The notes: a model not told the origin generated them from the letters alone. Positions 1,156 to 39,650 are shown, numbered from the stretch's first letter. The stretch is DNA of 64,000 nucleotides from Candidatus Harrisonbacteria bacterium (GCA_023255625.1 JAHFLF010000001.1:30255-94254); one strand, 5' to 3'. Made by a program: numbers and translations.

Positions 1156-1162
1156 GTAGTAA

Positions 1163-1230
1163 TTATACGACTTCGGCATTATAGCAAGATTCGCAGTAAA
1201 CCCCGGTACTAGAACCTGCTGGTTCAGTAC
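1163..1230 (-). pseudogene. Remnant 3' end of a family paralog (encodes ...GSSTGVYCESCYNAEVV*). Its codons TGC-TAT-AAT form an extended -10 (TGCTATAAT).
   Basis: The 80-aa ORF at 1163..1405 ends with the family C-terminal signature YCESCYNAEVV but lacks the rest of the protein. It lies between the stop of the 1257..2984 paralog and the operator/start of the partial paralog. Confidence 0.4.
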
Positions 1231-2984: not shown

Positions 2985-2989
2985 AGATA

Positions 2990-3095
2990 GTTAGAGTATA
3001 GAGCGGAGCCCCGCACCGTGCCAGCAGGCTCTGGTGCGTGGGAGCCGGTTCAACTCCGACGCCCAGTAGGGGTCGGAGCCCCGACCGGAGCGTCG
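2990..3095 (-). repeat. GC-rich structured 5'-leader element (copy 1) upstream of paralog 1257..2984
   Basis: ~105-nt GC-rich block with three hairpins (for example CCCCGAC-N6-GTCGGGG). Embedded in a ~200-bp block identical to 4797..4996. Confidence 0.6.
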
Positions 3096-3136
3096 GGGTC
3101 GTGAAATTCTGTTTGCAGTTCTGACAATTTTTAGTT
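3093..3136 (-). pseudogene. Remnant paralog N-terminus (MEAETKNCQNCKQNF) upstream of the GC-rich leader element
   Basis: An ATG plus family CQNCKxxF codons directly flank the element. The frame reads through the element to a stop just past the real ATG. The analogous remnant MMRDTRACQNCKQDF lies at ~4996..5034. Confidence 0.35.
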
Positions 3137-3194: not shown

Positions 3195-4862
3195 CTAAAG
3201 CATCTCCTTTTGATAACACGCTTCGCAATAAATCTTATACTCTTTTTGCTGCTGCGGCGAATACGAAGTCTCAAAATTGGCGGAGCAGTTCGCGCACGCC
3301 CCTGGCCAAAGCTCTCGGCGGTTACGCATATTCATACGACGCTGATGACGACAATTAAAACATTGCTTAGGAAGGGCTACGCCAAGTCGCCTGTACACTG
3401 AAATCTCGTGTGCGATAAATTTATAGTTCCTGCCACACTCTGTACATTTGAGAACATGCTTTAATAATTCATCGGAATACTCTGAGGGAATCTGGGGCAG
3501 ATCCTCGTGGCTGATGGTTTCTTTACCAACAGTACTTGGAATGTCATCCTGCCAACGAAAACCTTGAGCAAGCGCCTCCTCTTTAGTCAGGGGCATATAT
3601 TCGTTGACAATCGCTTCATTATAGGCAAACGGCGAAAGTGAGGCGGGAAAAAATTGCCCCCATTCCCCTGTTTTTCTCATGTGTCCGACAATTTCAGGGA
3701 CCAGTTCTTCGTACTGCTCTTTAGTGTACTGCTTATTTAAAATACAATATTCCGCATTACGCATCCCGGCACACCCGAATAAATTTTTAGAAGCGAAAAT
3801 GAAATCTGAATAGTAAATATCGTGTGAGGCATGACAATAGTGATTGCCGATGATATGACTACTCGCCCCAATCGCCGTCACTATCTCATAGGATTGATCG
3901 GGTTCAAGCGAGAAAGAGGCGTCATATACCTGCACCGCCCGCCGGCCCGTGAATACAAACTTTGAGTCCTCGCCTGCACGCAGATCAAAACAATACTGTA
4001 AATTTTTACCATTATAGATATGATTGCCGGAAACTTCGGTATTGTGACTACCAAAGTAATGATGCTGCGGTAATTCTCTCCGAAGTTTCAACTGCTCGGC
4101 TAAAATCATTTTAATCGTCTCCGGATCATGCAGCGGATGCTCCTTCAGGAACTGCTCGTACTGCTCTTTAGTTACCTGCTGATTGAAAATATGGTAACTC
4201 TTCTGGATAAGACCGACGCATCCAATAGAATTACTCACGCTGCGACAGTCATACAAACCAATACTGTCGTTGCAGTTTTCGCACTCCTCTGAGTACAAAA
4301 TCTGGTAACAATTTACGCAATCAACGCACTCATAGCATGAGTCTGATTTATGAACATAGAGGCCATCAACACAATTTTTTGAGTCCCAGACTATATGGCC
4401 ATATGAGCAGTCTTCGCTTTCAGGACAACCAAAAACTAAGTAACAATTTTTGCTGTTGAGAATAAAATTTGAATACTCGCATCCCTGACAGTTAACAGCA
4501 TTGGTTGCAAAACGCGGCACAACCTTCAGTAGGTCATTGAATTGATCAAAAAATGGGCGGTTAAAATCAAAATCGCGGCCATACGATTTAGAATCCCAGC
4601 CATCACTCCACCATTCGTCGTTCGCATAAATCGCGTAGGGTGATTTTGGATGATACATTGAGACCACCATCTTGCCCGACTTATCCGACGGCCTCTTATA
4701 TAATGTCTTAAAATTCCGGAAAAGCATCCGCCTTTGATTACGACACTGCGGACACCAGGTCGGCGGCGGTACCGCCATTTTTTTGTAGAACTCAAAGTCC
4801 GAAGCGTCTATAACAAAAGATTCCTTGCAGTTCTGGCAGACCTTTGTTTCAGTAGAAGCCAT
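3195..4862 (-). CDS. Cys-rich multi-zinc-ribbon family protein (555 aa)
   Basis: ORF track. The N-terminal 15 aa are identical to the 1257..2984 paralog, and ~200 nt of DNA (5' leader plus start) are identical. Confidence 0.85.
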   Translation of the reverse strand: MASTETKVCQNCKESFVIDASDFEFYKKMAVPPPTWCPQCRNQRRMLFRNFKTLYKRPSDKSGKMVVSMYHPKSPYAIYANDEWWSDGWDSKSYGRDFDFNRPFFDQFNDLLKVVPRFATNAVNCQGCEYSNFILNSKNCYLVFGCPESEDCSYGHIVWDSKNCVDGLYVHKSDSCYECVDCVNCYQILYSEECENCNDSIGLYDCRSVSNSIGCVGLIQKSYHIFNQQVTKEQYEQFLKEHPLHDPETIKMILAEQLKLRRELPQHHYFGSHNTEVSGNHIYNGKNLQYCFDLRAGEDSKFVFTGRRAVQVYDASFSLEPDQSYEIVTAIGASSHIIGNHYCHASHDIYYSDFIFASKNLFGCAGMRNAEYCILNKQYTKEQYEELVPEIVGHMRKTGEWGQFFPASLSPFAYNEAIVNEYMPLTKEEALAQGFRWQDDIPSTVGKETISHEDLPQIPSEYSDELLKHVLKCTECGRNYKFIAHEISVYRRLGVALPKQCFNCRHQRRMNMRNRRELWPGACANCSANFETSYSPQQQKEYKIYCEACYQKEML

Positions 4863-4867
4863 AGATA

Positions 4868-4973
4868 GTTAGAGTATAGAGCGGAGCCCCGCACCGTGCC
4901 AGCAGGCTCTGGTGCGTGGGAGCCGGTTCAACTCCGACGCCCAGTAGGGGTCGGAGCCCCGACCGGAGCGTCG
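4868..4973 (-). repeat. GC-rich structured 5'-leader element (copy 2) upstream of paralog 3195..4862
   Basis: Identical to copy 1. Confidence 0.6.
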
Positions 4974-5078
4974 GGGTCGTGAAATCCTGTTTACAGTTTT
5001 GGCACGCTCGTGTATCGCGCATCATGTATCGTATATCGTAATGCTTCTATCCCCACGTTACAAGTTATACGTTATGCG

Positions 5079-7925: not shown

Positions 7926-8049
7926 CTTTGTACAAGTTGCATTTGCGAGCAAGGCCTAGTTTAAAGTAGTCTTGCTCTTCCACTCATTCTGCAGGGAGTA
8001 TAGCAGAGTTGATGCAGTCTGTCAAGCAAATTTGATAGCAAATGTGGTG

Positions 8050-17567: not shown

Positions 17568-19349
17568 TCATGCAATTACTTCTTGGTTATAACATCTCTC
17601 GCAATATAAAAGTTCAGGACGCCCTGGTTCATATGCAGTCTCAAACTCATTCTTACAGTGCACACCACCATGATCGTGCAACCGCGTATTTTTATATGTT
17701 GACTCTGGGGCATGACACATACATCGCCTATGCCATAGCTTATAGGAGGTAAAATATTTTGAATGAACCCTGAAACGACACGCTGGACATGACCGAGGCA
17801 GTGCAATATTGAATTTCTTATAGAACTCAAGCTCTTTTAGAATTATTCTAAATACTCCTGGACACGAGCGTTCGTCCCCGCTCTCTCGAGCACACTCCAA
17901 AATCTCTTCGCATATAGACATCGGTACATCTTTAATATGGTCTGGAACATCGCTAGAAGGAACCGTAACTGCGTGATGACTGACAGGCGCATCGTACCAC
18001 CAATATCCCTTAGCCAACGCAGATTCTTTTGACTCGACAAAGTGCTCCTGCATTGCCCAGGAACTGTTATAAGGAAATAATGAATGACCTCCTGGCGGAA
18101 ACTCACCGTATCTATAGAGCCTTCCTTTGTCGTCCTTATACGGCATCATATTCATCTGCTCAATAATTTTTGCGCGGAGCTTCTCATACTCCACTTTTCC
18201 ATACTGCTTATTGAAAATGCAATATTTTTTACTCCGGAGACCCGCACAGGCAAATAAATATTCACTATCAATACATTCCCGTGCATATCTAATATCGCGT
18301 GAATTACGGATTCTATACGAAAAAGCCACGTCCTGAGAAGCAACTATAGATGCTGCATCGTACAGAAGCTGCGACTTAAGCCCGGCGCCAGCAATATCTT
18401 GAGAATCTTTTGTACCGTAGCCGACCACAAAACTGTAATGGCAATTTTCAATATCATTAAGAGCCTGGAATGTATGTCTGCAATTTTTAGAATTTATAAG
18501 ATTATCACCCGTACAGCTTGGTGCATTCCGAATGACCGCATACTTACGCGGATGCCCAAGAACGATTGAGTCGTAGCGCATCCGTACTGCGTCCCGGACA
18601 GCACGACTACCTAAATCATATTTCGCGCGCTCCTTTTTATACTCTTCTTTTGCATACTCTACATTAAATATGCAATATTTTTTGTTGCGCAAACCCACAC
18701 ATCCGAGACAGTCGGTACAGCCGCGACAATCATACATAAAATCACAATTAACTAGTTCGTCGCTATATGCAGAGCTGGTCACCTGAAACGACTTGTCTAC
18801 GGAAATAACATCATACGCTTGCTGTACAAATGTACTTAGTGTTGCGTCAACAGACTCCTTACTAAACACCGCGGTATGGCCATATATACAATTTTCACTC
18901 CCAAATGTACCGCTACACAAGTAACAATTCTTTGAATCTGTAGCGCCAAGACAGTATTCGCAATCTACGCTATTCACAATTTCCGTACTCCGCACAGGCA
19001 CCGCGCTCAACAGTTCTTTGTACTGCGCAAAAAATGGACGCGAAAAATCATAATCTCTACCATACGACATCCCATCCCAACCATCTGAAACCCAAAATTT
19101 GTAGTCGTACACCGGTGATTGGACGACCTCCGGATAGATTGAGACAATGCGCTCATTGTGCCCAGGCGCCTGACAGACTCTCTGATACAATGTCGTAGAA
19201 TCAGCACACCAACTAAGTCGCCGCTGCATCCGACACTGCACACACCATGTCGGTGGCGGCACCTGCATTTTTTTGTAAAACTCAAAATCTTCCGGCTCAA
19301 TCGTGAACTGATTTTTACACTGCTGACAATTTTTAATCTCTGTCCCCAT
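17568..19349 (-). CDS. Cys-rich multi-zinc-ribbon family protein (593 aa)
   Basis: ORF track. MGTEIKNCQQCKNQFTIEPEDFEFYKKMQVPPPTWCVQCR ... LLYCERCYNQEVIA. Confidence 0.85.
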   Translation of the reverse strand: MGTEIKNCQQCKNQFTIEPEDFEFYKKMQVPPPTWCVQCRMQRRLSWCADSTTLYQRVCQAPGHNERIVSIYPEVVQSPVYDYKFWVSDGWDGMSYGRDYDFSRPFFAQYKELLSAVPVRSTEIVNSVDCEYCLGATDSKNCYLCSGTFGSENCIYGHTAVFSKESVDATLSTFVQQAYDVISVDKSFQVTSSAYSDELVNCDFMYDCRGCTDCLGCVGLRNKKYCIFNVEYAKEEYKKERAKYDLGSRAVRDAVRMRYDSIVLGHPRKYAVIRNAPSCTGDNLINSKNCRHTFQALNDIENCHYSFVVGYGTKDSQDIAGAGLKSQLLYDAASIVASQDVAFSYRIRNSRDIRYARECIDSEYLFACAGLRSKKYCIFNKQYGKVEYEKLRAKIIEQMNMMPYKDDKGRLYRYGEFPPGGHSLFPYNSSWAMQEHFVESKESALAKGYWWYDAPVSHHAVTVPSSDVPDHIKDVPMSICEEILECARESGDERSCPGVFRIILKELEFYKKFNIALPRSCPACRFRVHSKYFTSYKLWHRRCMCHAPESTYKNTRLHDHGGVHCKNEFETAYEPGRPELLYCERCYNQEVIA

Positions 19350-19384
19350 ATTCTCTATTTACCTATTCGTACGAATAAGACAAT
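19350..19384 (-). promoter_or_regulatory. Conserved 35-bp inter-paralog spacer containing the palindrome ATTCGTACGAAT (a variant of the TATTCG..CGAATA operator core)
   Basis: Identical 35-mer attctctatttacctattcgtacgaataagacaat at 19350..19384 and 36811..36845, each directly upstream of a paralog ATG. Confidence 0.5.
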
Positions 19385-19389
19385 AAGCA

Positions 19390-21081
19390 TTACTCAACTT
19401 CTTTTTGATAACAAATATCGCAATAAACAATCTCGGGACGGCCTGGAGCGTATGTTGTGCGAAACGGCACCTTACAGTTGGCGCAGGATCCATCATAAAA
19501 TACCGGCGGTTTAAGTAACGCTGCCCGTCTCGCGCGCCGACACGTCAAGCACTCGCGAGGTAACGGAATACTCTGCTGCCTCAAAAATTGTAGCTCATTA
19601 GGAATAATACGATATGCTTTTTTGCATTGAATACACGCAATAATCTCTTTGAGGATACCATCCTTCGTATCACTAATATCATCTGGCAATGCGTTAGCTG
19701 ACACAGTTGTTGCAAATTCTTTTGCCTCAATCGCCGCCCACGGCAAACCCTTCTCTTTTGCCTGGGCCTCTGTAAGGGGCAAAAGTGACTGCATTTGAGA
19801 CTCATTGTAGCCATATGGACACAGGTCAATCGGAAAAAACTCTCCATAGCCGTAACTGTTACCGCGACTGTCTTTGTATGGCATCTCCACCATCTGCTTT
19901 TTTATCTTTGCCACAAGCGCCTCGTACTCCTCTTTTGAATACTGCTTGTTAAAAATACAATACTGCTTTTTCTTAAGCCCCACACATGCAAAACAATCCG
20001 ACGAGGAGCGGCAGAAGAATGCGTACTCTAAACGCTCGCAGGAGGGCCAGCAGTCAAAACAAAATTTAAGGTTGTCGGCCTCATAGCCGCAGGTTTGGCA
20101 TTCATAAATCCGTGACGCCTTGTCACCCCAGGTACAGTAGTCATAGGAGTCTGTGACGCCGCGGTAGGTCATCTGGCAATATTTACAGTCCTGCATCTCA
20201 TTACCACCCCAACACTCTTTTGCATTTTTTGTATGAACTAAATTATCCCCGGTTGAATTTTGATTGTGCGTGCCGTTCATAAATCGTACCGGCCGCGTCT
20301 TTGCGAGCTCCTGCATCTTCTTCATAATGGCTCGTAGCCCGCTATATGTATTGAGTTTCAATTTTGCAACCTCAACAAAATACTCTTCTTTTGAATATGG
20401 TTGGTTAAAAATATAGTACGACTTTTTACGCAGGCCAACGCACCCTACGCAATCAGAGCAACCGAATAGATCCCTGGAGCACCAAATATTGCGTGACTCA
20501 AAGCAATTGTAGGAGAAAAATAATTTAAAACCCTCTTTGAAAAGAGTGGCATCGTAACACAACTCTCCATTGCCGCCATCAAGACAATCAACCGAATCCT
20601 TGGTATATCCAAGCCGAATACAGTACGAGCAGTTCTCGCACATATCACTATTAAAACAAAGATAACAATTTTTTAAATTACCTGCTTCTGCGCAGTAATC
20701 CGAGTTAACTAAATTCATCACTGACCGCGATGGCCAAGGCACCGAGTATAAGAATTCCTTGAATTGCTCAAAAAATGGCCGCGAAAAATCATAGTCCTGG
20801 CCATACTCCATGGCGTCCCAGGCATCTGATTTCCAATACTCAACATCATAAATCTTCGCTCGCGTCGTCCTCTGAAACTCAGAAAATATTTCCTTACCAG
20901 TGCGCACATCCGGAGCGCGATACAAATTGCTTTCGTTGCGCCATATAAGCCGCCTTATCATTCTGCACTGCGGACAAAAAGTCGGCGGCGGCACCTGCAT
21001 TTTTTCATAAAAACCAAAATCCTCCGAATCAATCGTAAAATCCTGTTTGCAGTTCTGGCAATTTTTTATTTCCGTTCCCAT
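19390..21081 (-). CDS. Cys-rich multi-zinc-ribbon family protein (563 aa)
   Basis: ORF track; family motifs (..IVYCDICYQKEVE). Confidence 0.85.
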   Translation of the reverse strand: MGTEIKNCQNCKQDFTIDSEDFGFYEKMQVPPPTFCPQCRMIRRLIWRNESNLYRAPDVRTGKEIFSEFQRTTRAKIYDVEYWKSDAWDAMEYGQDYDFSRPFFEQFKEFLYSVPWPSRSVMNLVNSDYCAEAGNLKNCYLCFNSDMCENCSYCIRLGYTKDSVDCLDGGNGELCYDATLFKEGFKLFFSYNCFESRNIWCSRDLFGCSDCVGCVGLRKKSYYIFNQPYSKEEYFVEVAKLKLNTYSGLRAIMKKMQELAKTRPVRFMNGTHNQNSTGDNLVHTKNAKECWGGNEMQDCKYCQMTYRGVTDSYDYCTWGDKASRIYECQTCGYEADNLKFCFDCWPSCERLEYAFFCRSSSDCFACVGLKKKQYCIFNKQYSKEEYEALVAKIKKQMVEMPYKDSRGNSYGYGEFFPIDLCPYGYNESQMQSLLPLTEAQAKEKGLPWAAIEAKEFATTVSANALPDDISDTKDGILKEIIACIQCKKAYRIIPNELQFLRQQSIPLPRECLTCRRARRAALLKPPVFYDGSCANCKVPFRTTYAPGRPEIVYCDICYQKEVE

Positions 21082-21123
21082 GTCTTTATACTACAACCTA
21101 CTCACTACAAACTACAACCTATC

Positions 21124-22827
21124 CTACACCACCTCTTTTTGGTAACACGACTCGCAATAAATAATCTCGGGCCGGTCGGGAGCATACGCCGTCTGGAATG
21201 CGGCGTTACATTTTGCACAATTCCTATCCCACAACTTTGGCGGGTTGAGCCGTGACAATCGTTCCATGTGCCGACAGTCTGGGCACAAACGCGGAATCGG
21301 AAACTCAAATCGACGAAGCAGGGCAAGTTCGGCCGGAATCATTTTGAACGGCTTGCTACATTTCGCACAGCCCAAAACTTCTTGCAAAATAGAATCCTGC
21401 AAATCGCGAATGCTGTCCGGTAGTTTTTCAGGTGGAAGAGTTACTTTATGCTGACTCGGGACCGGCTCACGCCACCGCCAACCTTTCTTCAGAATCTCTT
21501 CCTTCGTCAAAGGAAAATATTGCTGGGCCTGCGTCTCGTTATACGCCCACGGACTCAAGTCATACGGTAAAAATTCTCCGTACTTCCACACGCGGCCTGA
21601 CGAATCAACATACGGCCGATCATTCATGCTCTGAATAATTTCCGCGCGCATCTTTTTATACTCCTCCGGCGAATACTGTTTATTCAAAATGCGATACTCT
21701 TTGCCCTTTAGATTGATGCAGCCAAAATTATGCTTACACCGCAAGTTATACATGCAATATTCCATGTCTAATGTATCGCCCTGGCAGGCACAATTGCAGA
21801 ATCTGACCATACTCGTGCCCTCTCCGGCAGAAACACTGTCAACAACAAGCTCAATTCCGTTACCCCACTCCGTGACATCATAAATGTCTTTCGCCGGACC
21901 CATCGTAAGAAACTGACAGTAACGCGCATCCTCAATCCCCTTCGTCTGGTAGCAATTAATCGCATTCTTAGATTGGAATACATAATCTCCTGTCGCGTTC
22001 GCATTCATGAGGGCGTGCATATACTTGCGTGGATATTCGAGCCAAAAAGCACGTGCCTGCTCTCGGGCCCTCATAAGGCCAGAGTAAGTATTAATCTTGA
22101 ATTCCTTCAATTTGGCTACATATTCTTCCTTCGTATACGACTCATTGAAAATATGATACTGCTTGTTGCGCAAATTAACGCAACCATAACAATCACTGCA
22201 ATCCGTGCAAGATTTCAAAAAATATGAATCTCTACAATTACTGCTGTCTTCAGAAAAAAATAATCTAAATGACTTCCCGCTGCAGATATTTTCATAACAA
22301 AGCTCGCTTTCACTAAGCATTAAAGAATCCATGGAATCTTTATTGCGCACCACCACGGTAGAATAATGCACATTCTCATTGAAATCCGCATTAAAAATAA
22401 GGTAGCAATTTTTTAGACTACCTGCGTAATTAACATATTCGCTATTTACTAGGGTTGTATAATCGTGAATCATTGCAGAGTAAGGAGCTTTTTGGTGGAG
22501 CTCCATCATCTGCTCAAAAAAGTTACGTTTGGGGTCATAGTCGAGATAGAACGCCCCATCATCCCATTTATCTGAATACCAGCAATGACTACAGTAAACG
22601 ACCATTTTCGTATCGGGTGCATGAATAGAGACAACCTCTTTCTTGCAAAGATCGCATGATCTTTTATACAAGGTTCGTTCTTGCCGAAACATAATTCGCC
22701 GTTGAAAACGACACTCGGGACAAAATGTCGGCGGCGGCACCTGCATCTTTTCGTAAAATCCAAAATCCTCTGGTTCAACATTGAACTGATTTTTACAATT
22801 TTGACAGTTGCGAGTTTCGACATCCAT
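21124..22827 (-). CDS. Cys-rich multi-zinc-ribbon family protein (567 aa)
   Basis: ORF track. The start is directly preceded by an operator-like half-site and the stop of the ArsR-family gene. Confidence 0.85.
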   Translation of the reverse strand: MDVETRNCQNCKNQFNVEPEDFGFYEKMQVPPPTFCPECRFQRRIMFRQERTLYKRSCDLCKKEVVSIHAPDTKMVVYCSHCWYSDKWDDGAFYLDYDPKRNFFEQMMELHQKAPYSAMIHDYTTLVNSEYVNYAGSLKNCYLIFNADFNENVHYSTVVVRNKDSMDSLMLSESELCYENICSGKSFRLFFSEDSSNCRDSYFLKSCTDCSDCYGCVNLRNKQYHIFNESYTKEEYVAKLKEFKINTYSGLMRAREQARAFWLEYPRKYMHALMNANATGDYVFQSKNAINCYQTKGIEDARYCQFLTMGPAKDIYDVTEWGNGIELVVDSVSAGEGTSMVRFCNCACQGDTLDMEYCMYNLRCKHNFGCINLKGKEYRILNKQYSPEEYKKMRAEIIQSMNDRPYVDSSGRVWKYGEFLPYDLSPWAYNETQAQQYFPLTKEEILKKGWRWREPVPSQHKVTLPPEKLPDSIRDLQDSILQEVLGCAKCSKPFKMIPAELALLRRFEFPIPRLCPDCRHMERLSRLNPPKLWDRNCAKCNAAFQTAYAPDRPEIIYCESCYQKEVV

Positions 22828-22828
22828 A

Positions 22829-22857
22829 CTAGTCGCTTATTCGCGCGAATTAGAGAA
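22829..22857 (-). promoter_or_regulatory. Operator-like site ACTAGTCGCTTATTCGCGCGAATTAGAGA between the ArsR stop and the 21124..22827 paralog start
   Basis: Same motif as 1127..1155, directly abutting the ATG. Confidence 0.5.
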
Positions 22858-23110
22858 TAGAAATAATATGTTTTGCAGTCGCTGGCGGTGCGTCGCTCAA
22901 CCGATAAAACATATTCAAGCTCTGCTGATCCCGATCTAAAATTTCAGCGGCTCGCAAAATACCAAGATGCTTTGAAGTGGCTTTGAGCGAAAGGTTAAGC
23001 TCGTCGGCTATCGCGGAAACAGACGCGCGCCGAACGCGTTTTAAATATTTTAAAATTGCAAGCCGCCTTGCATTTGCTAGCGCTTTGAGAGTTTTCTCAA
23101 GCTGTCGCAT
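22850..23110 (-). CDS. ArsR/SmtB-family HTH transcriptional regulator (86 aa, no Cys, no obvious metal site)
   Basis: LKALANARRLAILKYL...VSAIADELNLSLKATSKHLGILRAAEIL is the ArsR-type wHTH. A perfect 32-bp palindrome lies in its promoter. Confidence 0.75.
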   Translation of the reverse strand: MRQLEKTLKALANARRLAILKYLKRVRRASVSAIADELNLSLKATSKHLGILRAAEILDRDQQSLNMFYRLSDAPPATAKHIISIL

Positions 23111-23145
23111 AGTACATTCACTATATCATACCGCCTCCAACCTGT

Positions 23146-23177
23146 ACTAGTCGCTTATTCGCGCGAATAAGCGACTA
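23146..23177. promoter_or_regulatory. Perfect 32-bp palindrome ACTAGTCGCTTATTCGCGAATAAGCGACTAGT in the promoter of the ArsR-family gene (putative autoregulatory operator)
   Basis: Read directly from the sequence. It is centred ~50 nt upstream of the ArsR ATG. Half-site copies occur directly upstream of two Cys-rich paralog start codons. Confidence 0.6.
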
Positions 23178-23183
23178 GTAGAA

Positions 23184-24326
23184 TTAAAGCGCAGATTTAA
23201 TGACTCCTCCGCCAAGCATCTTGCCAGCTTTGTCATAGAAGACAGCAGACTGGCCGGGGGCGACAAATTTTTGCGGTCGGTTAAAAACAATCTTGCAAGT
23301 TTTATCTGATGATTGATAGAGGGTCGCCGAAAAAAGCGGCTGTCGATACCTAACTCTAGTAAAAACCTTTACGCCACTATTCGCCCATTCGCTCGAATTA
23401 GAGATAAGTGGATTTATAAAATTAACAGTAGAGAGTTGAACCTCGTGCGAATATAATGAATCTTCATTTTCTGCGGCAAGTGTAACTGTATTTTTCTTTA
23501 TATCTTTTGAGGCGACATACAGCGGCACAGGAGAACCACCAACGCCTAGCCCTTTACGCTGGCCAATCGTAAAATGATGTGCGCCAGAGTGCTGGCCGAG
23601 TATCTTCCCGTGCATATCCAGCACCTTGCCCTTCTTTGGCGGCACAAATCTGTCCAAAAATTCCGGTAATTTTATCTGACCTAAAAAGCAGACGCCCTGC
23701 GAATCTTTTTTCTCGGCATTGGGGAGCTTATACTTTTTTGCGAGCCGACGAACATCAGTTTTTTTAATTAAATCTCCAAGCGGGAACAAACAATGCGCCA
23801 GCTGCTTTTGAGTCAGCATCCAGAGGAAGTAGGACTGGTCTTTACTGGAGTCTCGTGCAACATGTAACGTGTAGCGTGTAGCGCCGGAAGATTTATTCAT
23901 TCCCTTCTTTTTATCCAATGTTACATGTTTCGCGTTATACGCTACACGACGACGCACATAATGCCCGGTAGCCACAAAATCCGCGCCCAACTCCATCGCT
24001 CGTTCAAAAAACATCCCGAACTTAATTTCGTGATTGCACATCACATCCGGATTTGGCGTAATGCCCTTGCGGTACCCGTCAACCATATACTGCACCACCT
24101 TCTCGCGATACTCCTTTTCAAAATCAAATACATAAAATGGAATACCGAGCGTCTCCGCCGCCCGCCGGGCATCCTCGGCATCCTGCTCCGCGCATCCATC
24201 AACATTCCAGCAACGCAAATGAACGCCAACGACATTGTATCCTTGGTCTTTTAAAATCCCAGCGGTAACCGAGGAGTCCACGCCACCGCTCATGCCTACG
24301 AAGACTGTTTTATGATTTTTTTGCAT
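23184..24326 (-). CDS. mnmA: tRNA-specific 2-thiouridylase
   Basis: PP-loop VFVGMSGGVDSSV, then KDQSYFL and CFLGQ motifs. Contains a ~20-aa insertion relative to canonical MnmA. Confidence 0.85.
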   Translation of the reverse strand: MQKNHKTVFVGMSGGVDSSVTAGILKDQGYNVVGVHLRCWNVDGCAEQDAEDARRAAETLGIPFYVFDFEKEYREKVVQYMVDGYRKGITPNPDVMCNHEIKFGMFFERAMELGADFVATGHYVRRRVAYNAKHVTLDKKKGMNKSSGATRYTLHVARDSSKDQSYFLWMLTQKQLAHCLFPLGDLIKKTDVRRLAKKYKLPNAEKKDSQGVCFLGQIKLPEFLDRFVPPKKGKVLDMHGKILGQHSGAHHFTIGQRKGLGVGGSPVPLYVASKDIKKNTVTLAAENEDSLYSHEVQLSTVNFINPLISNSSEWANSGVKVFTRVRYRQPLFSATLYQSSDKTCKIVFNRPQKFVAPGQSAVFYDKAGKMLGGGVIKSAL

Positions 24327-27102: not shown

Positions 27103-27684
27103 ATGCTTGCATACAACGAACTCAACGAAGGTGTCATGTTTGTCTATGAAGGCGCTCCGTACCAGGTTATTTCGTTTGCCTTTTTGCGCATGCAGCAGCG
27201 TAAACCGGTGGCGCAGACCGACATTAAAAATTTGATCACGGGTAAATTACTCCAACGCAACTTTCATTCAAACGAGGTATTTGAGGAGGTTGAGATTGAT
27301 AAAGAAGAGTGTAAATATTTGTATAACACAAAAGGCCAGTATTGGTTTTCTTCAAAAAATGACCCGAGTAAGCGATTTTTCCTGACCGAAGAAGCCGCTG
27401 GCACACCGGCAAAATTTACCAAACCAAACACGATTGTGACGGCACTGCGCTGGAAGGGCGACATAATCAATGTTGTATGGCCAATCAAGGCAGATTTGAA
27501 AGTTACCGAAACTCCGCCTGGCGAAAAGGGTAACTCGGCCAGCAACACAACTAAAACCGCCAAACTTGAAACCGGTGCCGAGATTCAGGTACCCATGTTT
27601 GTAAATAACGGCGACATCGTCCGCATCAACACAGCAAACGGACAGTATACCGAGCGGATGGAAAAATCAGCCGTAGGACTGTAA
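27103..27684 (+). CDS. efp: elongation factor P
   Basis: 193 aa with EF-P domain architecture. KPVAQTDIKNLITGK and the C-terminal ETGAEIQVPMFVNNGDIVRINTANGQY match EF-P. Confidence 0.75.
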   Translation: MLAYNELNEGVMFVYEGAPYQVISFAFLRMQQRKPVAQTDIKNLITGKLLQRNFHSNEVFEEVEIDKEECKYLYNTKGQYWFSSKNDPSKRFFLTEEAAGTPAKFTKPNTIVTALRWKGDIINVVWPIKADLKVTETPPGEKGNSASNTTKTAKLETGAEIQVPMFVNNGDIVRINTANGQYTERMEKSAVGL

Positions 27685-27777: not shown

Positions 27778-29622
27778 TTATCTCTGCGGAGACCGTTGCG
27801 GCGGTTGTCTCTGGCCTCCCCCGCCACCCGAAGGCCGATAGCCACCATCCGGCCTTCGCTGCCCGCCGCCCTGCCGCCCTGATTGCGGAAACGGAGGTCT
27901 TTGCTGTTGCGCTTGAGGCCGAGGCGGCTGGTTGTTTTGCTGCGCCGGGCGCGGTGTTTCTTGGCTACGAACTGGTGCTGGAGGGCGCGAGGGGCGGGGC
28001 GGTTCTTTTGTCTCTTCAAATTCAATACCCATTCCAGCCAGAACATCCTGCGCGCGGGCCTGCACTTCGGCTTTTGGCTGTTTAATAATTTTCGGCGCTT
28101 TAATATCGCCCTTCTTAACTTTTTCCAGACAATCCGAGCAATACACTGGACGATTTGGATTCGGCTTAAACGGCGTTTTGGCACTTTTACCGCAGACAGA
28201 ACAGACCGACATAAAGAGCTCATCCCCCTGCTTATTAATACCAACCATATCCGGACTCTGCTGCGAGGCCTCCTCTGGTGTCTCCGCCAGTGAACTGCTC
28301 CAGCGGGTGATCTCTTGCTCAACTTTCTCCCGAGATTGCGTATACATTCGACGCGAGTGCTCAACTATTACCTCCTCGCCCGGCGCATCCACATTTGATT
28401 TGAACGGCATCAAAGTATTCGCCGAAAACGGACGAGAGTTTGTGCCCGAGACCATCAGCCGAACATAAAAATTATAGTTTGGTAGATTAACAATGTCTGG
28501 AATCATAAATTCCGGCTCTAGTTCCGGCTCGAGAAATTCAGCGTCAGAGGCACCGACGCGGAAAATAATCATTGTGCCGCAGTTACCAAAAACAGCATCG
28601 CGAACTTTGGTCGACATATCACCGGAGACCAACTGGCCGATATATTGATGAGCAATCGTCAAATTTAAACGATATTTACGCGCTTCAGAGAGCACGCCGG
28701 CAAAAGAGTCGGTCGCAAAATTTTGAAACTCGTCGACATAAAGAAAAAAATCCTTGCGCTCATGTTCCGGAATACGCACCCGTTCCATGGCGGCCAGCTG
28801 AATCTTCGTGATGAGCATTGCGCCGAGCAGCGCAGAATTATCCTCACCGATGCGCCCCTTCGAAACATTGACCAGGAAAATCTTCCGCTCATTCATCATT
28901 TTGAAAATATCAATCGTGCTGCGCGTCTGGCCAACGGTATTACGGACTAGACCGGTTGATAAAAACTGACCAACTTTGTTTTGAATTGGCGCGATGGCCT
29001 CGCTGCGGAACTTATCCTGCCACTCCTCATATTCACTGATCCAAAAAGCCCGCACGACCGGATCTTTGACATTCGCAATAATCTTTTGGCGATAATCTTT
29101 GTCAACTAATAGGCGCGGAATACCCAGCAAGGTCGTCCCCGGCGTCTCCAGGAGCGCCAAGACGGCATTATTCATAATATATTCCATTCTGGCCGACCAG
29201 ACATTGCTCCAAATTTTGGTAAAAATACCCATTAGACCGGAGGCCACCAGGTGCTTATATTTCGGATCTGGCAATTCGAGCACATTAAAACCCATCGGAA
29301 AATCAACATCGGCCGGGTTAAAATACACGACATCGTTCAGCCGCTCCTTGGGAATCATTTTTAAAATTCCCTCGACTAACTCTCCATGCGGGTCAACTAC
29401 ACAAAGACCGTCCCCGTTCATAACATCCTGCGAAATTATATTGTGCAGCATTGAAGACTTGCCTGTGCCGGTTTTACCAATCACATACATATGCTGCCGC
29501 CGGTCTTTGCGGGCAATGCCAAAAAGCCGATCTTCACCGCGAAAGTTCGTTTTACCAAAATAAACAACATCGCTCCCGGCGGCGTGGCCCTCTGCTCCGC
29601 CTCTTTGAATTGTTTCTGCCAT
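27778..29622 (-). CDS. FtsK/HerA/T4SS-coupling-protein (TraD/VirD4)-like P-loop ATPase with C-terminal CxxC-x17-CxxC zinc ribbon and RGG/Q-rich tail
   Basis: Walker A RRQHMYVIGKTGTGKSSML, then VVDPHGE, Walker B FFLYVDEFQNF, and LTIAHQYIGQL. No N-terminal TM helices. The C-terminus CSVCGK..RPVYCSDCLEKV is followed by QQRPPFPQSGRQGGGQRRPDGGYRPSGGGGG. Confidence 0.65.
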   Translation of the reverse strand: MAETIQRGGAEGHAAGSDVVYFGKTNFRGEDRLFGIARKDRRQHMYVIGKTGTGKSSMLHNIISQDVMNGDGLCVVDPHGELVEGILKMIPKERLNDVVYFNPADVDFPMGFNVLELPDPKYKHLVASGLMGIFTKIWSNVWSARMEYIMNNAVLALLETPGTTLLGIPRLLVDKDYRQKIIANVKDPVVRAFWISEYEEWQDKFRSEAIAPIQNKVGQFLSTGLVRNTVGQTRSTIDIFKMMNERKIFLVNVSKGRIGEDNSALLGAMLITKIQLAAMERVRIPEHERKDFFLYVDEFQNFATDSFAGVLSEARKYRLNLTIAHQYIGQLVSGDMSTKVRDAVFGNCGTMIIFRVGASDAEFLEPELEPEFMIPDIVNLPNYNFYVRLMVSGTNSRPFSANTLMPFKSNVDAPGEEVIVEHSRRMYTQSREKVEQEITRWSSSLAETPEEASQQSPDMVGINKQGDELFMSVCSVCGKSAKTPFKPNPNRPVYCSDCLEKVKKGDIKAPKIIKQPKAEVQARAQDVLAGMGIEFEETKEPPRPSRPPAPVRSQETPRPAQQNNQPPRPQAQQQRPPFPQSGRQGGGQRRPDGGYRPSGGGGGQRQPPQRSPQR

Positions 29623-33950: not shown

Positions 33951-35110
33951 ATCAAAAACCGGCTGTTTTAATTCTTGATGTAGGCACAACAACAATTAAA
34001 GCATTTGTGTTTGATCAGGAACTCCATGTCCTTGGCCAAGCAAAACTAGAGCCAAAAAAAACTCGCCCGCAATCTGGCTTCGTTGAACAAGATCCGCTGG
34101 AGTTGCTCGCGCTAGCAAAGCAGGTGCTCGTACAAGCGGTGGCTATAGCAAAAATTGCGCCCGCCGAAATTTTATCTTTCGGAATCACAAATCAGAGGGA
34201 AACTGTTATCGCTTGGGATAGAGCCACCGGCGAGCCACTTTACCCGGCAATAGTCTGGGAAGATACGCGCACAGCAAAAACATGCGCTGCGTTAGAGCGC
34301 TTTACCGGCTTCGTCCGCGAAAAAACCGGCCTGCCAATTGATCCATATTTTTCTGCTACTAAAGTCAGCTGGTTATTACAACAACCGCCAGTTATCCATG
34401 CGCTGCGGGAGAAAACTCTTTGCGTCGGGACAGTTGACAGTTGGATTCTTTGGAACCTTTCAGCCGAGCATCTCCATGCCACTGATTACACCAACGCGAG
34501 CCGGACGCTTCTTTTCAATATAAAAACATTAAGCTGGGACAGCGAATTATTAAAACTCTTTGCTGTCCCGGCCGAAATTCTGCCGAAAGCGCAGCCGTCC
34601 GCCGCGAACTTCGGTTCGCTGAATACTGATATTGTCGGTGCACTAATTCCGATTCGTGCGCTTTGCGGAGATCAGCAGGCCAGCCAGTACGCCGCTGGCG
34701 TAAATGTCGGTGCAACAAAAGTAACACTAGGTACGGGAATTTTTATTTCTCAAATTATCGGAAGTAATTTCCAAATTCGACCTCCTTTTTTTACGACACT
34801 TGTGCCAAATGAAAAACAGCCCTGGTACGCGCTTGAGCAGAAAATAAATGAGTCTGGCTCGAGAATTCAGGAACTACTTGATAAAAAAATGGATCTGGCT
34901 CCGCTGCTCAAAGAGTTTTCAGAGGATGTAAATATATATTTGAAAAAACTACCGCGCCAACCGGCCGAACTTGTAATTGACGGCGGTATAACTCAAGCGC
35001 CGGCGCTCGCGGATATTCTCGCGGAGACAACTGGCTTGCCGGTGCGCCGCCAAATAATTCCAGATGGCACACCGCTTGGTATGGCAAAATTATTGTTTAG
35101 CCGCGATTAA
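33947..35110 (+). CDS. glpK: glycerol kinase-like FGGY carbohydrate kinase (truncated C-terminal domain)
   Basis: LILDVGTTTIKAFVFD...ITNQRETVIAWDRATGEPLYPAIVWEDTRT...DPYFSATKVSWLL are GlpK motifs. 387 aa against the typical ~500 aa. Confidence 0.65.
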   Translation: MNQKPAVLILDVGTTTIKAFVFDQELHVLGQAKLEPKKTRPQSGFVEQDPLELLALAKQVLVQAVAIAKIAPAEILSFGITNQRETVIAWDRATGEPLYPAIVWEDTRTAKTCAALERFTGFVREKTGLPIDPYFSATKVSWLLQQPPVIHALREKTLCVGTVDSWILWNLSAEHLHATDYTNASRTLLFNIKTLSWDSELLKLFAVPAEILPKAQPSAANFGSLNTDIVGALIPIRALCGDQQASQYAAGVNVGATKVTLGTGIFISQIIGSNFQIRPPFFTTLVPNEKQPWYALEQKINESGSRIQELLDKKMDLAPLLKEFSEDVNIYLKKLPRQPAELVIDGGITQAPALADILAETTGLPVRRQIIPDGTPLGMAKLLFSRD

Positions 35111-36810
35111 ACAACCTCGGCGTTGTAGCAAGTTTCGCAATAGACTATGTCGGGCCGGTCGGGCGCAAAACTAGTAATAAACTTATTGGCGCAGCCCGGC
35201 TTCATGCACTGGCGATCATAAAATATGGCTTTGTTGCGTTGAATAATTCGGGCGGAGTGGCGGCAATCTATGCATGTCCGTGGAAGAGGAATTTCGAACT
35301 GGCGCAAGAATTGTAACTCCGGACCAATAATGCGATACGCTTTTTTACACTCTGCACACTGAATGATCTGCTTCACGATATCATCCTGCGCATTACCAAT
35401 AGAATCCGGAAGCTGCGCAGCAGTCATCGTCGTTTGATACTCTGTTGGATTTGGTTCTTGCCACCGCGCACCAAATGCGAGCGCCTCCTCTTTAGAAAGC
35501 TTAAAATGCTCGGGGCTGATACTTTGATCGTACGCAAATGGAGAAAATTCCGGCGGAAAAAATTCACCGTATGCGTATGTCCTACCCTGTTTATCTACAT
35601 GCGGCATCGTATTCATCTGCTCAATAATTTTTTTGCGCAACGCAAAATAATCTTCTTTAGAGTATTGCTTATTCAAAATACAGTACTGCTTGTTTCTGAC
35701 TGACACGCAGCCAAATAAATTCATGGCAGTCCCGCCGCAGTGCATGCAATATTCAAAGTCTGAACCTCCGTCCCAACACTCCCAGCAGAACTTGAGGCGG
35801 GTTGCTCCCCATCCAGAGGTTGCAGATTCATAGACAAGCTCCGTGGCGCCAGTAACCGTAACATCCATAGAATCAGTAGTCGGCAGTGCCTGCGAATACT
35901 GGATATAGCGCAGATCCTGGCCCTCGGCAATCACATACCCATGGTGTACATTTTTTGAGAAGCTCACAAAATCGCCGCTGACATTTGCGTTCAACATTCC
36001 TTGCAAATTCTTGATAGGAAATGTAAGCCAAAATTCTTTTGCTTTTTGCCACGCTACTGTAAGCCCGCTCCAGGTATCAAGTTTGAGCGCTTCAAGCCGT
36101 TTAAAGTACTCCTCCTTAGTAAGCTGCTCATTATTAAAGCAATAACTCTTATTGCGCAAATTCACGCAGCCGAAACAGTCGGTGCAACCGCGACACTCCC
36201 GAGAAAACCAAATTGAAGCTGACTCGGCACAGAGCGAAGAGAAAAATGCCTTATTGCAAGAAAGCACCCAGAAACAGCCATAACAACTTTCTGACTTTTT
36301 CAGATTAGAATTATCATACGAATTTTTGCATTCATCAATCCCGTTGCCGTATCCGCAGTCTTCGTCATGATTTGCGTTGAAGACTAAATAACAATTTTTA
36401 AGCCCGTCGGCGTTACCAGAGTAATCGCTGTTAACCATATTGATAGCGGCCGAGCGATAACGCGGCACCTTTTGATTGAGCTCCTGCAGTTGCGCCAAAA
36501 ACGGCCGACTTGGATCAAAATCCTGGCCATAACTCATCGGGTCCCATCCTGTCTGCCCAAACCACTCCTTATCATCATAAATAGGAAACCCGCAATCAGC
36601 TGGATAGATACCAACCGTGTCTCTGCCGGTAGTCGCCTCCTTAATCCTAAACAACTTTCGCTCATTGCGAAACAACATTCGCCTGCGCATCCGGCACTGC
36701 GCACACCATGTAGGCGGCGGCACATCAATCTTTTTGTAAAAATCAAAATCCGCCTCTTCGATCACAAAATCTTTTTTACAGTTTTGGCAGTATCTAGTTT
36801 CCGGTCTCAT
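35107..36810 (-). CDS. Cys-rich multi-zinc-ribbon family protein (567 aa)
   Basis: ORF track; family motifs (..IVYCETCYNAEVV). Confidence 0.85.
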   Translation of the reverse strand: MRPETRYCQNCKKDFVIEEADFDFYKKIDVPPPTWCAQCRMRRRMLFRNERKLFRIKEATTGRDTVGIYPADCGFPIYDDKEWFGQTGWDPMSYGQDFDPSRPFLAQLQELNQKVPRYRSAAINMVNSDYSGNADGLKNCYLVFNANHDEDCGYGNGIDECKNSYDNSNLKKSESCYGCFWVLSCNKAFFSSLCAESASIWFSRECRGCTDCFGCVNLRNKSYCFNNEQLTKEEYFKRLEALKLDTWSGLTVAWQKAKEFWLTFPIKNLQGMLNANVSGDFVSFSKNVHHGYVIAEGQDLRYIQYSQALPTTDSMDVTVTGATELVYESATSGWGATRLKFCWECWDGGSDFEYCMHCGGTAMNLFGCVSVRNKQYCILNKQYSKEDYFALRKKIIEQMNTMPHVDKQGRTYAYGEFFPPEFSPFAYDQSISPEHFKLSKEEALAFGARWQEPNPTEYQTTMTAAQLPDSIGNAQDDIVKQIIQCAECKKAYRIIGPELQFLRQFEIPLPRTCIDCRHSARIIQRNKAIFYDRQCMKPGCANKFITSFAPDRPDIVYCETCYNAEVV

Positions 36811-36845
36811 ATTCTCTATTTACCTATTCGTACGAATAAGACAAT
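36811..36845 (-). promoter_or_regulatory. Second copy of the 35-bp spacer with the ATTCGTACGAAT palindrome
   Basis: Identical to 19350..19384. Confidence 0.5.
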
Positions 36846-36847
36846 GG

Positions 36848-38609: not shown

Positions 38610-39611
38610 CTAGTTGGCGAGCAGATTAAGAATGAGTCTAATCATCACCTCTTTTTCTTTCGGATTACTCTCGGCGATAAGTAAAGCAAGCGCGACGAGC
38701 GCGTTGTCATTGATTTTCTTTTCGCCGCTCTTTTTAAGCAATTTATTATTGCGGCTCAAAAACAAGATAAACAAAAATGAGCCGATGCGTTTATTGCCAT
38801 CAGAGAAGGAATGATCTTTGATCACAAAGTAGAGTAAATGCGCAGCTTTTTCTTCAATACTTGGATACAGATGAATACCGCCGAAAGACTGGTAAAGTCC
38901 GGCGATAATACCCTGAAATGATTTATCGCGCTCACTGCCAAACAGGTCGCTCGCCTCGCCTTTGTTCATCAGAGCAATTTTTAGCTCGTCAATCGCACTA
39001 CGGGCATCTTCATAAAGTAGTAAACGACCGCCAGCTTTCTTAAGTATCGGGGTTTCAAGTCGCTGCTCATCGTATTTCTGCAACAACAACCATGCGTTAG
39101 CGTAACCGCTAATCACTTCAAGCAAACCGCTTGTCTCATCACTTGAAAGCATTTTCTGTTTTGCCCGTTCCAGCAAATCCAGCGTCTTTCTAAATTCAAT
39201 AAGCTGTTTGCCTTGCAGCTGTTTGAGACGTTGCTCATTTACCGTCACACCTTTCAAGATATGATCCTTGAGAACATTCGTTGCCCATCGACGAAACTCA
39301 ATGCCGCGTCGGGTATTTGTTCGGTAACCAACTGCGAGGATGATATCAAGATTATAAAAACTGACTGGTTTATCAGAATTTGGAATGTGCATTTTTTGCA
39401 CATTGCTTTTTGTATCAACCTCACCATCCTTGAGAATGTTGCGAATATGTTTGGTTACCACTGTCCGGTCAATACCGAATAAATCAGTAATTTGACCCTG
39501 GGTCAGCCACACCGTCTCGCCACTAAAACGCACTTCAACCGAAGCGTTACGCTTTTTATCTTGATAGATAATTATCTCACCTCTATCCTGCTGCTTTTTC
39601 GTCTTTGCCAT
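38610..39611 (-). CDS. RhuM-family virulence protein with C-terminal Fic/Doc domain
   Basis: N-terminal EIIIYQDKKRNASVEVRFSGETVWLTQGQITDLFG is RhuM-like. The C-terminal HSFSDGNKRIGSF is the Doc/Fic HxFx(D/E)GNKR motif. Confidence 0.7.
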   Translation of the reverse strand: MAKTKKQQDRGEIIIYQDKKRNASVEVRFSGETVWLTQGQITDLFGIDRTVVTKHIRNILKDGEVDTKSNVQKMHIPNSDKPVSFYNLDIILAVGYRTNTRRGIEFRRWATNVLKDHILKGVTVNEQRLKQLQGKQLIEFRKTLDLLERAKQKMLSSDETSGLLEVISGYANAWLLLQKYDEQRLETPILKKAGGRLLLYEDARSAIDELKIALMNKGEASDLFGSERDKSFQGIIAGLYQSFGGIHLYPSIEEKAAHLLYFVIKDHSFSDGNKRIGSFLFILFLSRNNKLLKKSGEKKINDNALVALALLIAESNPKEKEVMIRLILNLLAN

Positions 39612-39650
39612 GTATCTATACTACAACCTACCACCTACTCCCTACAACCT

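Follow-up and report, generated by a model that had tools for sequence, protein, structure and literature searches.

A minimal ArsR/SmtB-type regulator and its predicted operator, conserved across Patescibacteria

Regulators of the ArsR/SmtB family bind operators arranged as 12-2-12 inverted repeats, which sometimes overlap the -35 element (PMC8790569). In a 64,000-nucleotide (nt) stretch of DNA from a "Candidatus Harrisonbacteria" bacterium (GCA_023255625.1, JAHFLF010000001.1:30255-94254; hereafter, the window), an 86-amino-acid (aa) protein of this family is encoded on the minus strand, and a palindrome beside its gene recurs at five other places. The window has 47% G+C, and the homologues of its proteins carry names from genomes of Patescibacteria (the candidate phyla radiation [CPR]). 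These bacteria are mostly uncultured, with tiny genomes and few regulators, and to our knowledge almost nothing is known about their gene regulation. From comparisons of sequences and predicted structures, we consider it probable (about 0.8) that the protein is an autoregulated, minimal ArsR/SmtB-type regulator without a sensor site and that the palindrome is its predicted operator, which is conserved phylum-wide, brackets the regulator's own gene, and marks other genes.

Among described systems, SmtB-smtA, CzrA, and AzuR-nmtA resemble this locus in fold and family, in an inverted-repeat operator (2 bp between the arms) close to or on the promoter, and in autoregulatory layout; SmtB and AzuR likewise control a Cys-rich protein, a metallothionein. 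Unlike these proteins, the regulator described here is shorter (86 aa) and has neither alpha3N nor alpha5 ligands nor a conserved Cys. Its predicted operators also differ, with arms of ~15 bp, a core of AATTCG, a second operator that spans the stop codon of the regulator gene, and a conserved one within a coding sequence. The predicted targets are broad and not metal-related, and those that are Cys-rich are ~570-aa proteins with CxxC pairs, not metallothioneins. HlyU, NolR, PagR, YgaV, and BigR/SqrR are small dimeric winged-helix proteins that likewise have no classical metal sites, and the best matches of the regulator among solved proteins were HlyU (3jth, E=5.6e-12) and NolR (4omy). BigR, SqrR, and some HlyU proteins use a pair of Cys residues for sensing, whereas the window regulator has no Cys; HlyU is a known activator or anti-silencer. 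The searchable literature contained no report that links any of them to this operator or to Patescibacteria.

The closest backbone superposition (root mean square deviation, 1.6-1.7 A over 71 residues) was to AspA, the ArsR-like centromere-binding protein of Sulfolobus plasmid pNOB8, which is similarly minimal in size, has a palindromic site, and shows weak sequence similarity (E=5.5e-4). AspA is a plasmid partition protein that spreads along DNA from the centromere, whereas the sites predicted here are chromosomal and lie at promoters and gene starts, with no partition genes seen nearby. By analogy only, CIRCE/HrcA and the LexA box are palindromic operators that vary little throughout a phylum and are paired with an invariant recognition helix; they involve another protein family and have clear themes (heat shock and the SOS response), whereas no theme is visible here. 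Searchable literature held nothing relevant on Patescibacteria ArsR palindromes, CPR regulons, or the motif string. The regulator-operator pair thus appears to be previously undescribed in that literature, while ArsR/SmtB autoregulation itself is of a known kind.

The regulator and six predicted operators in the window

The regulator gene (22850-23110, minus strand) is the second in a minus-strand order of mnmA (23184-24326), the ArsR-family gene, and a gene for a 567-aa Cys-rich protein (21124-22827). Membership of the 86-aa protein in the ArsR/SmtB family is supported by several comparisons. It passed the curated Pfam cut-offs for HTH_5/HTH_20 (PF12840, 33.8 bits against a cut-off of 27; PF01022, 31.7 bits against a cut-off of 22) and scored 64.3 bits against NCBIfam NF033788 (cut-off, 55). 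Its AlphaFold2 (AF2) model, with a predicted local distance difference test (pLDDT) score of 94.9, has helices at residues 2-26, 31-38, and 42-54, strands at 58-63 and 66-71, and a helix at 77-85. This is the winged helix-turn-helix of the ArsR fold, with a recognition helix, a beta-hairpin wing, and a C-terminal helix, and Foldseek matched the model to CzrA, HlyU, SqrR, NolR, and SmtB, each with probability 1.00. Profiles, fold, and structure matches all agree with an earlier note on this DNA, which had placed an ArsR-family gene at these coordinates. At least 522 relatives of the protein are present in metagenomes.

The window regulator contains 0 Cys and 2 His. An alignment of 18 sequences of the regulator family revealed no conserved Cys, hence no Cys pair of the kind found in thiol/persulfide sensors (BigR, SqrR, and some HlyU), and no metal ligands of the alpha3N or alpha5 type. 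The sole invariant His in the alignment, H48, lies inside the recognition helix, and in the AF2 model the protein ends after a 9-residue C-terminal helix. Judged by these features, the regulator would carry no classical sensor site for metals or thiols; the earlier view that it has no Cys or His metal site, and so is probably not a canonical metal sensor, agrees with its composition and with the missing family ligands. Since no sensor site is visible, control may come from the level of the regulator itself through autoregulation, or from a ligand or partner.

A weight matrix trained only on unrelated metagenome loci picked by protein, none of them from the window, found exactly six sites in the 64 kb, scoring 28-44 bits; the next best position scored 8.1 bits and the maximum over 20 shuffles was 11.8 bits. 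Site O1 (23146-23179; 36.0 bits), the predicted autoregulatory operator, is a perfect 34-bp palindrome, ACTAGTCGCTTATTCGCGCGAATAAGCGACTAGT, that begins 4 nt past the mnmA stop codon and lies 35 nt (edge) or 52 nt (center) from the ArsR ATG (23110). The earlier note had rightly described a perfect palindrome some 50 nt upstream of the gene but had dropped one central CG, so that it appeared as 32 bp at 23146-23177. Site O2 (22828-22861; 43.6 bits) abuts the ATG (22827) of the Cys-rich paralog at 21124-22827 and covers the ArsR stop codon (22850-22852). The outer half of this downstream operator is formed by the final codons of the regulator gene, S-I-L-stop (TCT ATT CTC TAA, 22850-22861), and in many genomes the C terminus of the regulator and the DNA site are encoded together.

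Site O3 (1127-1160; 39.8 bits) lies 3 nt from the ATG (1123) of a paralog cut by the window edge, and a 29-nt block, ACTAGTCGCTTATTCGCGCGAATTAGAGA, is identical within O2 (22828-22856) and O3 (1127-1155). Sites O4 (19355-19386; 30.0 bits) and O5 (36816-36847; 28.4 bits), both with the center GTAC, lie in spacers of 40 nt and 37 nt ahead of the paralogs at 17568-19349 and 35107-36810, respectively, and a 38-nt block with this center, both ATGs included, is identical at 19347-19384 and 36808-36845. Copies at these four paralog starts had been reported in the earlier note, with the O3 block correctly placed, the O2 block shifted by one (22829-22857), and the spacer variant given as an identical 35-mer, which is in fact 38 nt long. 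All features given in the note were found to within 2 nt, but it overlooked a sixth copy, O6 (23377-23408; 37.4 bits), which lies inside the mnmA coding sequence at codons ~307-317, 230 bp from O1. No strand is assigned to any of the six sites.

Counts of shorter strings were likewise far above those expected from shuffles: 4 copies of the 16-nt arm were present in the window against 0.02 expected, 3 of TATTCG-N0-6-CGAATA against 0.06, and 6 of ATTCGNNCGAAT against 0.11. The ten Cys-rich paralogs of the window are only 25-43% identical in amino acid sequence; the identical blocks ahead of them are therefore maintained and do not stem from a recent duplication.

Conservation of the site and its link to the regulator

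Across the phylum, the site consensus was cTATTCTCTAATTCG-CG-CGAATTAGAGAATAg, an inverted repeat of ~30 bp with a 2-bp spacer and arms of ~15 bp. The core, AATTCG-N2-CGAATT, was nearly invariant (1.6-1.9 bits per position in AATTCG), and the outer positions were softer. Loci L001 and L002, whose ArsR homologues have 66-67% identity, carry the same sequence, TCTCTAATTCG(CG)CGAAT-N4-GAATAG, both ahead of the regulator gene and spanning its stop codon; Cys-rich paralogs in L002 and unrelated genes in both loci are likewise preceded by it. A scan for the exact pattern in one genome per species returned at least 119 matching stretches, compared with ~17 chance matches estimated for the whole genome collection from the 18 fixed bases of the pattern. 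Among the 80 matches listed, 76 were labeled Patescibacteria or unclassified and 4 otherwise; the classes named there include Paceibacteria, Uhr-, Kaiser-, Nomura-, Giovannoni-, Lipton-, Zambryski-, Sung-, Doudna-, Kerfeld-, and Veblenbacteria. The exact pattern had no match in 2.9 million viral contigs.

For an unbiased test of the link between protein and site, 80 metagenome loci were fetched by protein alone (the protein-selected loci). A site was present within 150 nt upstream of the regulator, the position of O1, in 60 of 77 loci; at the stop codon, the position of O2, in 46 of 79; and at both in 37 of 76. No site occurred in 405 kb of shuffled sequence, and the real flanks held 0.13 further sites per kb. 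The palindrome therefore travels with the regulator gene across the phylum. Only 13% of sites lay inside long open reading frames (ORFs), compared with 70% of random positions, in line with a site that acts through its DNA sequence and not through a fold.

The position of the site relative to promoters was evaluated in 58 distinct regulator-upstream regions, using hexamers with at least 5 of the 6 bases of TATAAT. Such -10-like hexamers started 28-31 nt from the site center in 27 of the 58 loci and 18 nt from it in 8; on the mirror side of the site none was found at either distance, only scattered ones elsewhere. A TG preceded 14 of the 39 hexamers in the 24- to 34-nt band, and the ATG often followed 6-30 nt past the hexamer. 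The peak at 28-31 nt places the site near -40 (at about -40 to -43 in most loci), over the -35 region, and leaves only a very short leader. The predicted -10 region of the window's ArsR promoter (23120-23130, minus strand) consists of TATGAT (23130-23125) overlapping a TG-extended TATAGT (TGATATAGT, 23128-23120); the former starts 32 nt from the O1 center and the latter 37 nt from it, 9 nt before the ATG. This arrangement is consistent with the autoregulatory geometry that the earlier note had read from the window alone. At the ATG-abutting sites, a TATAAT precedes the TCTCTAATTCG half of O3 by 6 nt and the 34-bp frame by 12 nt, and a TATTAT stands at the same offset before O2, inside the last ArsR codons. 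There we infer that the promoter lies upstream, with the site covering roughly +1 to +30.

Three observations point to the regulator as the protein that would bind the site, most likely in dimeric form. The recognition helix (S41 and T45 through L49) was invariant across the 18 aligned sequences, which matches the invariant core of the site. In loci whose helix carries K47R, the site center was GTGA or GAGA in 9 of 12 sites, compared with 2 of 203 in K47 loci, and several sites per genome had changed together. Three other groups of small ArsR-like paralogs were each bracketed by a different palindrome of their own (~22-34 bp), with one copy upstream of the gene and another at its stop codon or immediately beyond: CAACCTTTCAATTGAAAGGTTG; AACATTCCAACATTCT-TG-AGAATGTTGGAATGTT; and GAACAATTC-N4-GAATTGTTC. 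Members of these groups occur in the Patescibacteria loci L002 (1465-1710), L160, L193, L057, L060, L091, L054, and L155 (3050-3356). The palindrome of the third group was not found in the window. In L002, the second regulator is likewise followed by a Cys-rich paralog.

The site within mnmA makes the strongest case for a DNA site rather than a hairpin. This upstream neighbor of the regulator encodes a tRNA 2-thiouridylase (23184-24326, minus strand; Pfam tRNA_Me_trans, E=6.5e-72), and O6 was kept at the same MnmA loop (NFINP...ARVRYRQ) in L105 (~181-212), L029 (~3643-3674), L104 (~7949-7980), and L008 (~59-90), thus in five genomes with the window. MnmA in these four is 50-60% identical to that of the window. 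The site is read as ISNSSEWANS in the window and as SLIRANKR in the four other genomes; the same place in two reading frames argues for selection on the DNA rather than on the peptide. The MnmA homologues of L018, L042, and L060 did not have the site.

As for targets, a site stood ahead of 4 of the 10 Cys-rich paralogs in the window and of 0 of 52 other ORFs (p=4e-4). In the protein-selected loci, the corresponding counts were 8 of 19 paralogs and 33 of 302 other genes (p=9e-4). A paralog was immediately downstream of only 7 of 58 regulators, and genes next to sites elsewhere included those for Mur ligases, NUDIX proteins, DNA glycosylases, cyclophilin, TsaE, ribosomal protein L25, and ScpA, nearly all of them singletons. 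Recurrence at no fewer than four of the ten paralogs, as first claimed, therefore stands, but a paralog-specific regulon does not, because most site-adjacent genes elsewhere are unrelated housekeeping genes.

Competing explanations for the palindrome

In the sequences compared, two sites typically bracket the regulator gene. The upstream one is centered ~40 nt before the predicted start of transcription and covers the -35 region of a promoter that has only a -10 or an extended -10 element, a layout that would suit autoregulation. The second lies across the regulator's stop codon, ahead of the next gene. Further copies lie at other promoters or start codons and, in the window, at three more Cys-rich paralogs and in the interior of mnmA. 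Under the proposed mechanism, the bound protein would most likely repress: by promoter occlusion at its own gene and, at ATG-abutting sites, by blocking initiation or promoter-near elongation.

Several observations weigh against this proposal. At the threshold used, 17 of the 77 regulators had no detectable upstream site. The K47R loci probably form a single clade, so that their covariation with the site center counts as one evolutionary event and not 12 independent ones. The half-sites are systematically asymmetric: the gene-distal half keeps TCTCTAATTCG, whereas positions 7, 9, and 10 of the gene-proximal half are degenerate (AGGCG, AGGAG, and GGTAG are common readings), with the outer ATAG of that half better kept. 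To account for this asymmetry, more than a symmetric dimer is needed; a possible cause, though not a general one, is overlap with a ribosome-binding site (RBS) or -10 element. A canonical -35/-10 scan found no minus-strand promoter between O1 and the ArsR ATG and none near O3, which is why the promoter placement draws on -10-only or extended -10 elements in homologous loci. The ATG-abutting sites leave no room for a downstream promoter, and the mechanism offered for them is a guess. Across genomes, finally, the targets are diverse, with no visible physiological theme or signal.

A single promoter or RBS explanation was also sought for the ATG-abutting sites. Some upstream paralog C termini encode TGCTATAAT (CYN codons), and TGGTAGAAT or AGGAG appears in some of the gene-proximal half-sites, but no such feature proved general.

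The same protein and site might instead serve activation or anti-silencing at the regulator's own promoter and possibly elsewhere. Class II activators also have their sites centered near -40, and the top PDB sequence matches are labeled "transcription activator HlyU." We regard this as unlikely: many of the promoters have a good or extended -10 element and should need no activation, sites downstream of likely -10 elements and abutting ATGs fit repression better, and most characterized ArsR/SmtB proteins are repressors (PMC8790569). That some other protein binds the palindrome, with the ArsR gene as no more than a frequent target, would suit the broad, unthemed target set, as for a general factor. 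It is improbable given that the site brackets the ArsR gene in most genomes, that the K47R helix variant accompanies a changed site center, that three groups of ArsR-like paralogs have their own palindromes at the same relative positions, and that the arm-spacer-arm layout is the usual one for ArsR/SmtB proteins.

Two further explanations dispense with a regulator as the primary partner of the site. Spread or homogenization of paralog junctions by a mobile or recombinogenic palindromic repeat, either like repetitive extragenic palindromic (REP) elements or miniature inverted-repeat transposable elements (MITEs) or as a cassette junction, would make the link to the regulator secondary. The identical 29-nt and 38-nt junction blocks, which flank coding sequences only 33-36% identical, the relic paralog C terminus directly before O3, and the many unrelated genes downstream of sites in other genomes could all be accommodated in this way. 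Yet the position is syntenic and fixed in distant genomes (both ArsR flanks and the same mnmA loop), the core is invariant across the phylum, unlike that of decaying repeats, the viral contigs held no copy, and the 64 kb hold only six copies, all at gene boundaries or the conserved mnmA position; we give this explanation very little weight. A hairpin in RNA or DNA, acting as an mnmA terminator, as an RNA processing site, or by masking the RBS between tandem genes, seems scarcely credible. In its favor, O1 begins just past the mnmA stop codon with a possible 17-bp stem, several copies occupy short spacers of tandem paralogs right before ATGs, and an A-to-G change at position 9 of the gene-proximal half keeps a G-U pair (41% Watson-Crick compared with 77% RNA-compatible). 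The 151 unique sites, however, showed 628 one-sided arm changes against 105 compensatory ones, which argues against a hairpin, and the sites at ArsR genes, being upstream of the -10 element, fall outside that transcript. The mnmA terminator, which the earlier note had named as an alternative, fails on further points: no T tail follows the palindrome (the minus-strand sequence after it is ACAGGTTGG), a terminator scan of 22700-23500 omitted it, and the site keeps its place even in genomes that have a different gene upstream of ArsR. Rfam gave no match around the ArsR/palindrome region even at E<=1 and, at gathering scores, only a tRNA in the whole window.

Beyond the autoregulated repressor favored here, a wider role can be put forward only tentatively, and we doubt it more than we credit it. 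The sensor-less ArsR-type protein might be the main global transcription factor of Patescibacteria, acting at dozens of promoters per ~1-Mb genome, including those of housekeeping genes and the Cys-rich family. The "bracketing operator" cassette (upstream and stop codon) might be common to at least four ArsR-like lineages with private palindromes, and operators in coding sequence, as in mnmA, might act as roadblocks or looping anchors.

Cysteine-rich paralogs, neighboring elements, and significance

Ten Cys-rich paralogs are present in the window, nine complete and one cut by the window edge. The four predicted targets, all on the minus strand, encode 567 aa (21124-22827, directly downstream of the regulator), 374 visible codons (1-1123, cut by the window edge), 593 aa (17568-19349), and 567 aa (35107-36810). 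In the AF2 model of the paralog at 21124-22827, a beta-solenoid-like middle is framed by CxxC pairs at both ends. A relic paralog C terminus, GVYCESCYNAEVV*, lies directly before O3 (1160-1204, minus strand), and its CYN codons read TGCTATAAT, which resembles an extended -10 element. The junction of paralog 3' end, site, and next ATG looks ancestral, with most of one paralog lost at O3.

Other elements near the paralogs were observed in passing. A GC-rich element of ~115 nt (~70% G+C) occurs on the minus strand at 2985-3126 and 4863-5004, as part of a 264-nt repeat with 94% identity between its two copies. The element lies between a truncated paralog N terminus (MEAETKNCQNCKQNFT) and a fresh N terminus (MASTETKVCQNCKESF) of the paralogs at 1257-2984 and 3195-4862. 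The 146-nt stretch that holds it (2985-3130) folds at -62 kcal/mol (z = -4.0), and a search of this leader against Rfam at E<=5 gave nothing but noise below threshold. The element has the look of an insertion or of a recombined 5' cassette. A 15-mer, GTAGGTTGTAGTATA (minus strand), occurs at 21087-21101 and 39617-39631, just upstream of the paralog at 19390-21081 and of a RhuM/Fic-domain gene (38610-39611); it is a second upstream motif, unrelated to the operator. In the spacer region 27623-27683, upstream of the minus-strand gene at 27778-29622, CTAACCAAC-like units are repeated (ctaaccaacaaccaactaactagctaaccaactaaccaac).

For organisms with few regulators, these comparisons provide a concrete candidate regulator-operator pair: an 86-aa protein and a sharp consensus, kept across many classes of Patescibacteria. 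The last codons of the regulator, and the mnmA loop with its two frames, offer clean cases of DNA-level constraint in coding sequence. A heavily expanded and enigmatic Cys-rich family becomes tied to a predicted regulator, and the weight matrix would let the regulon be read from any metagenome-assembled genome.
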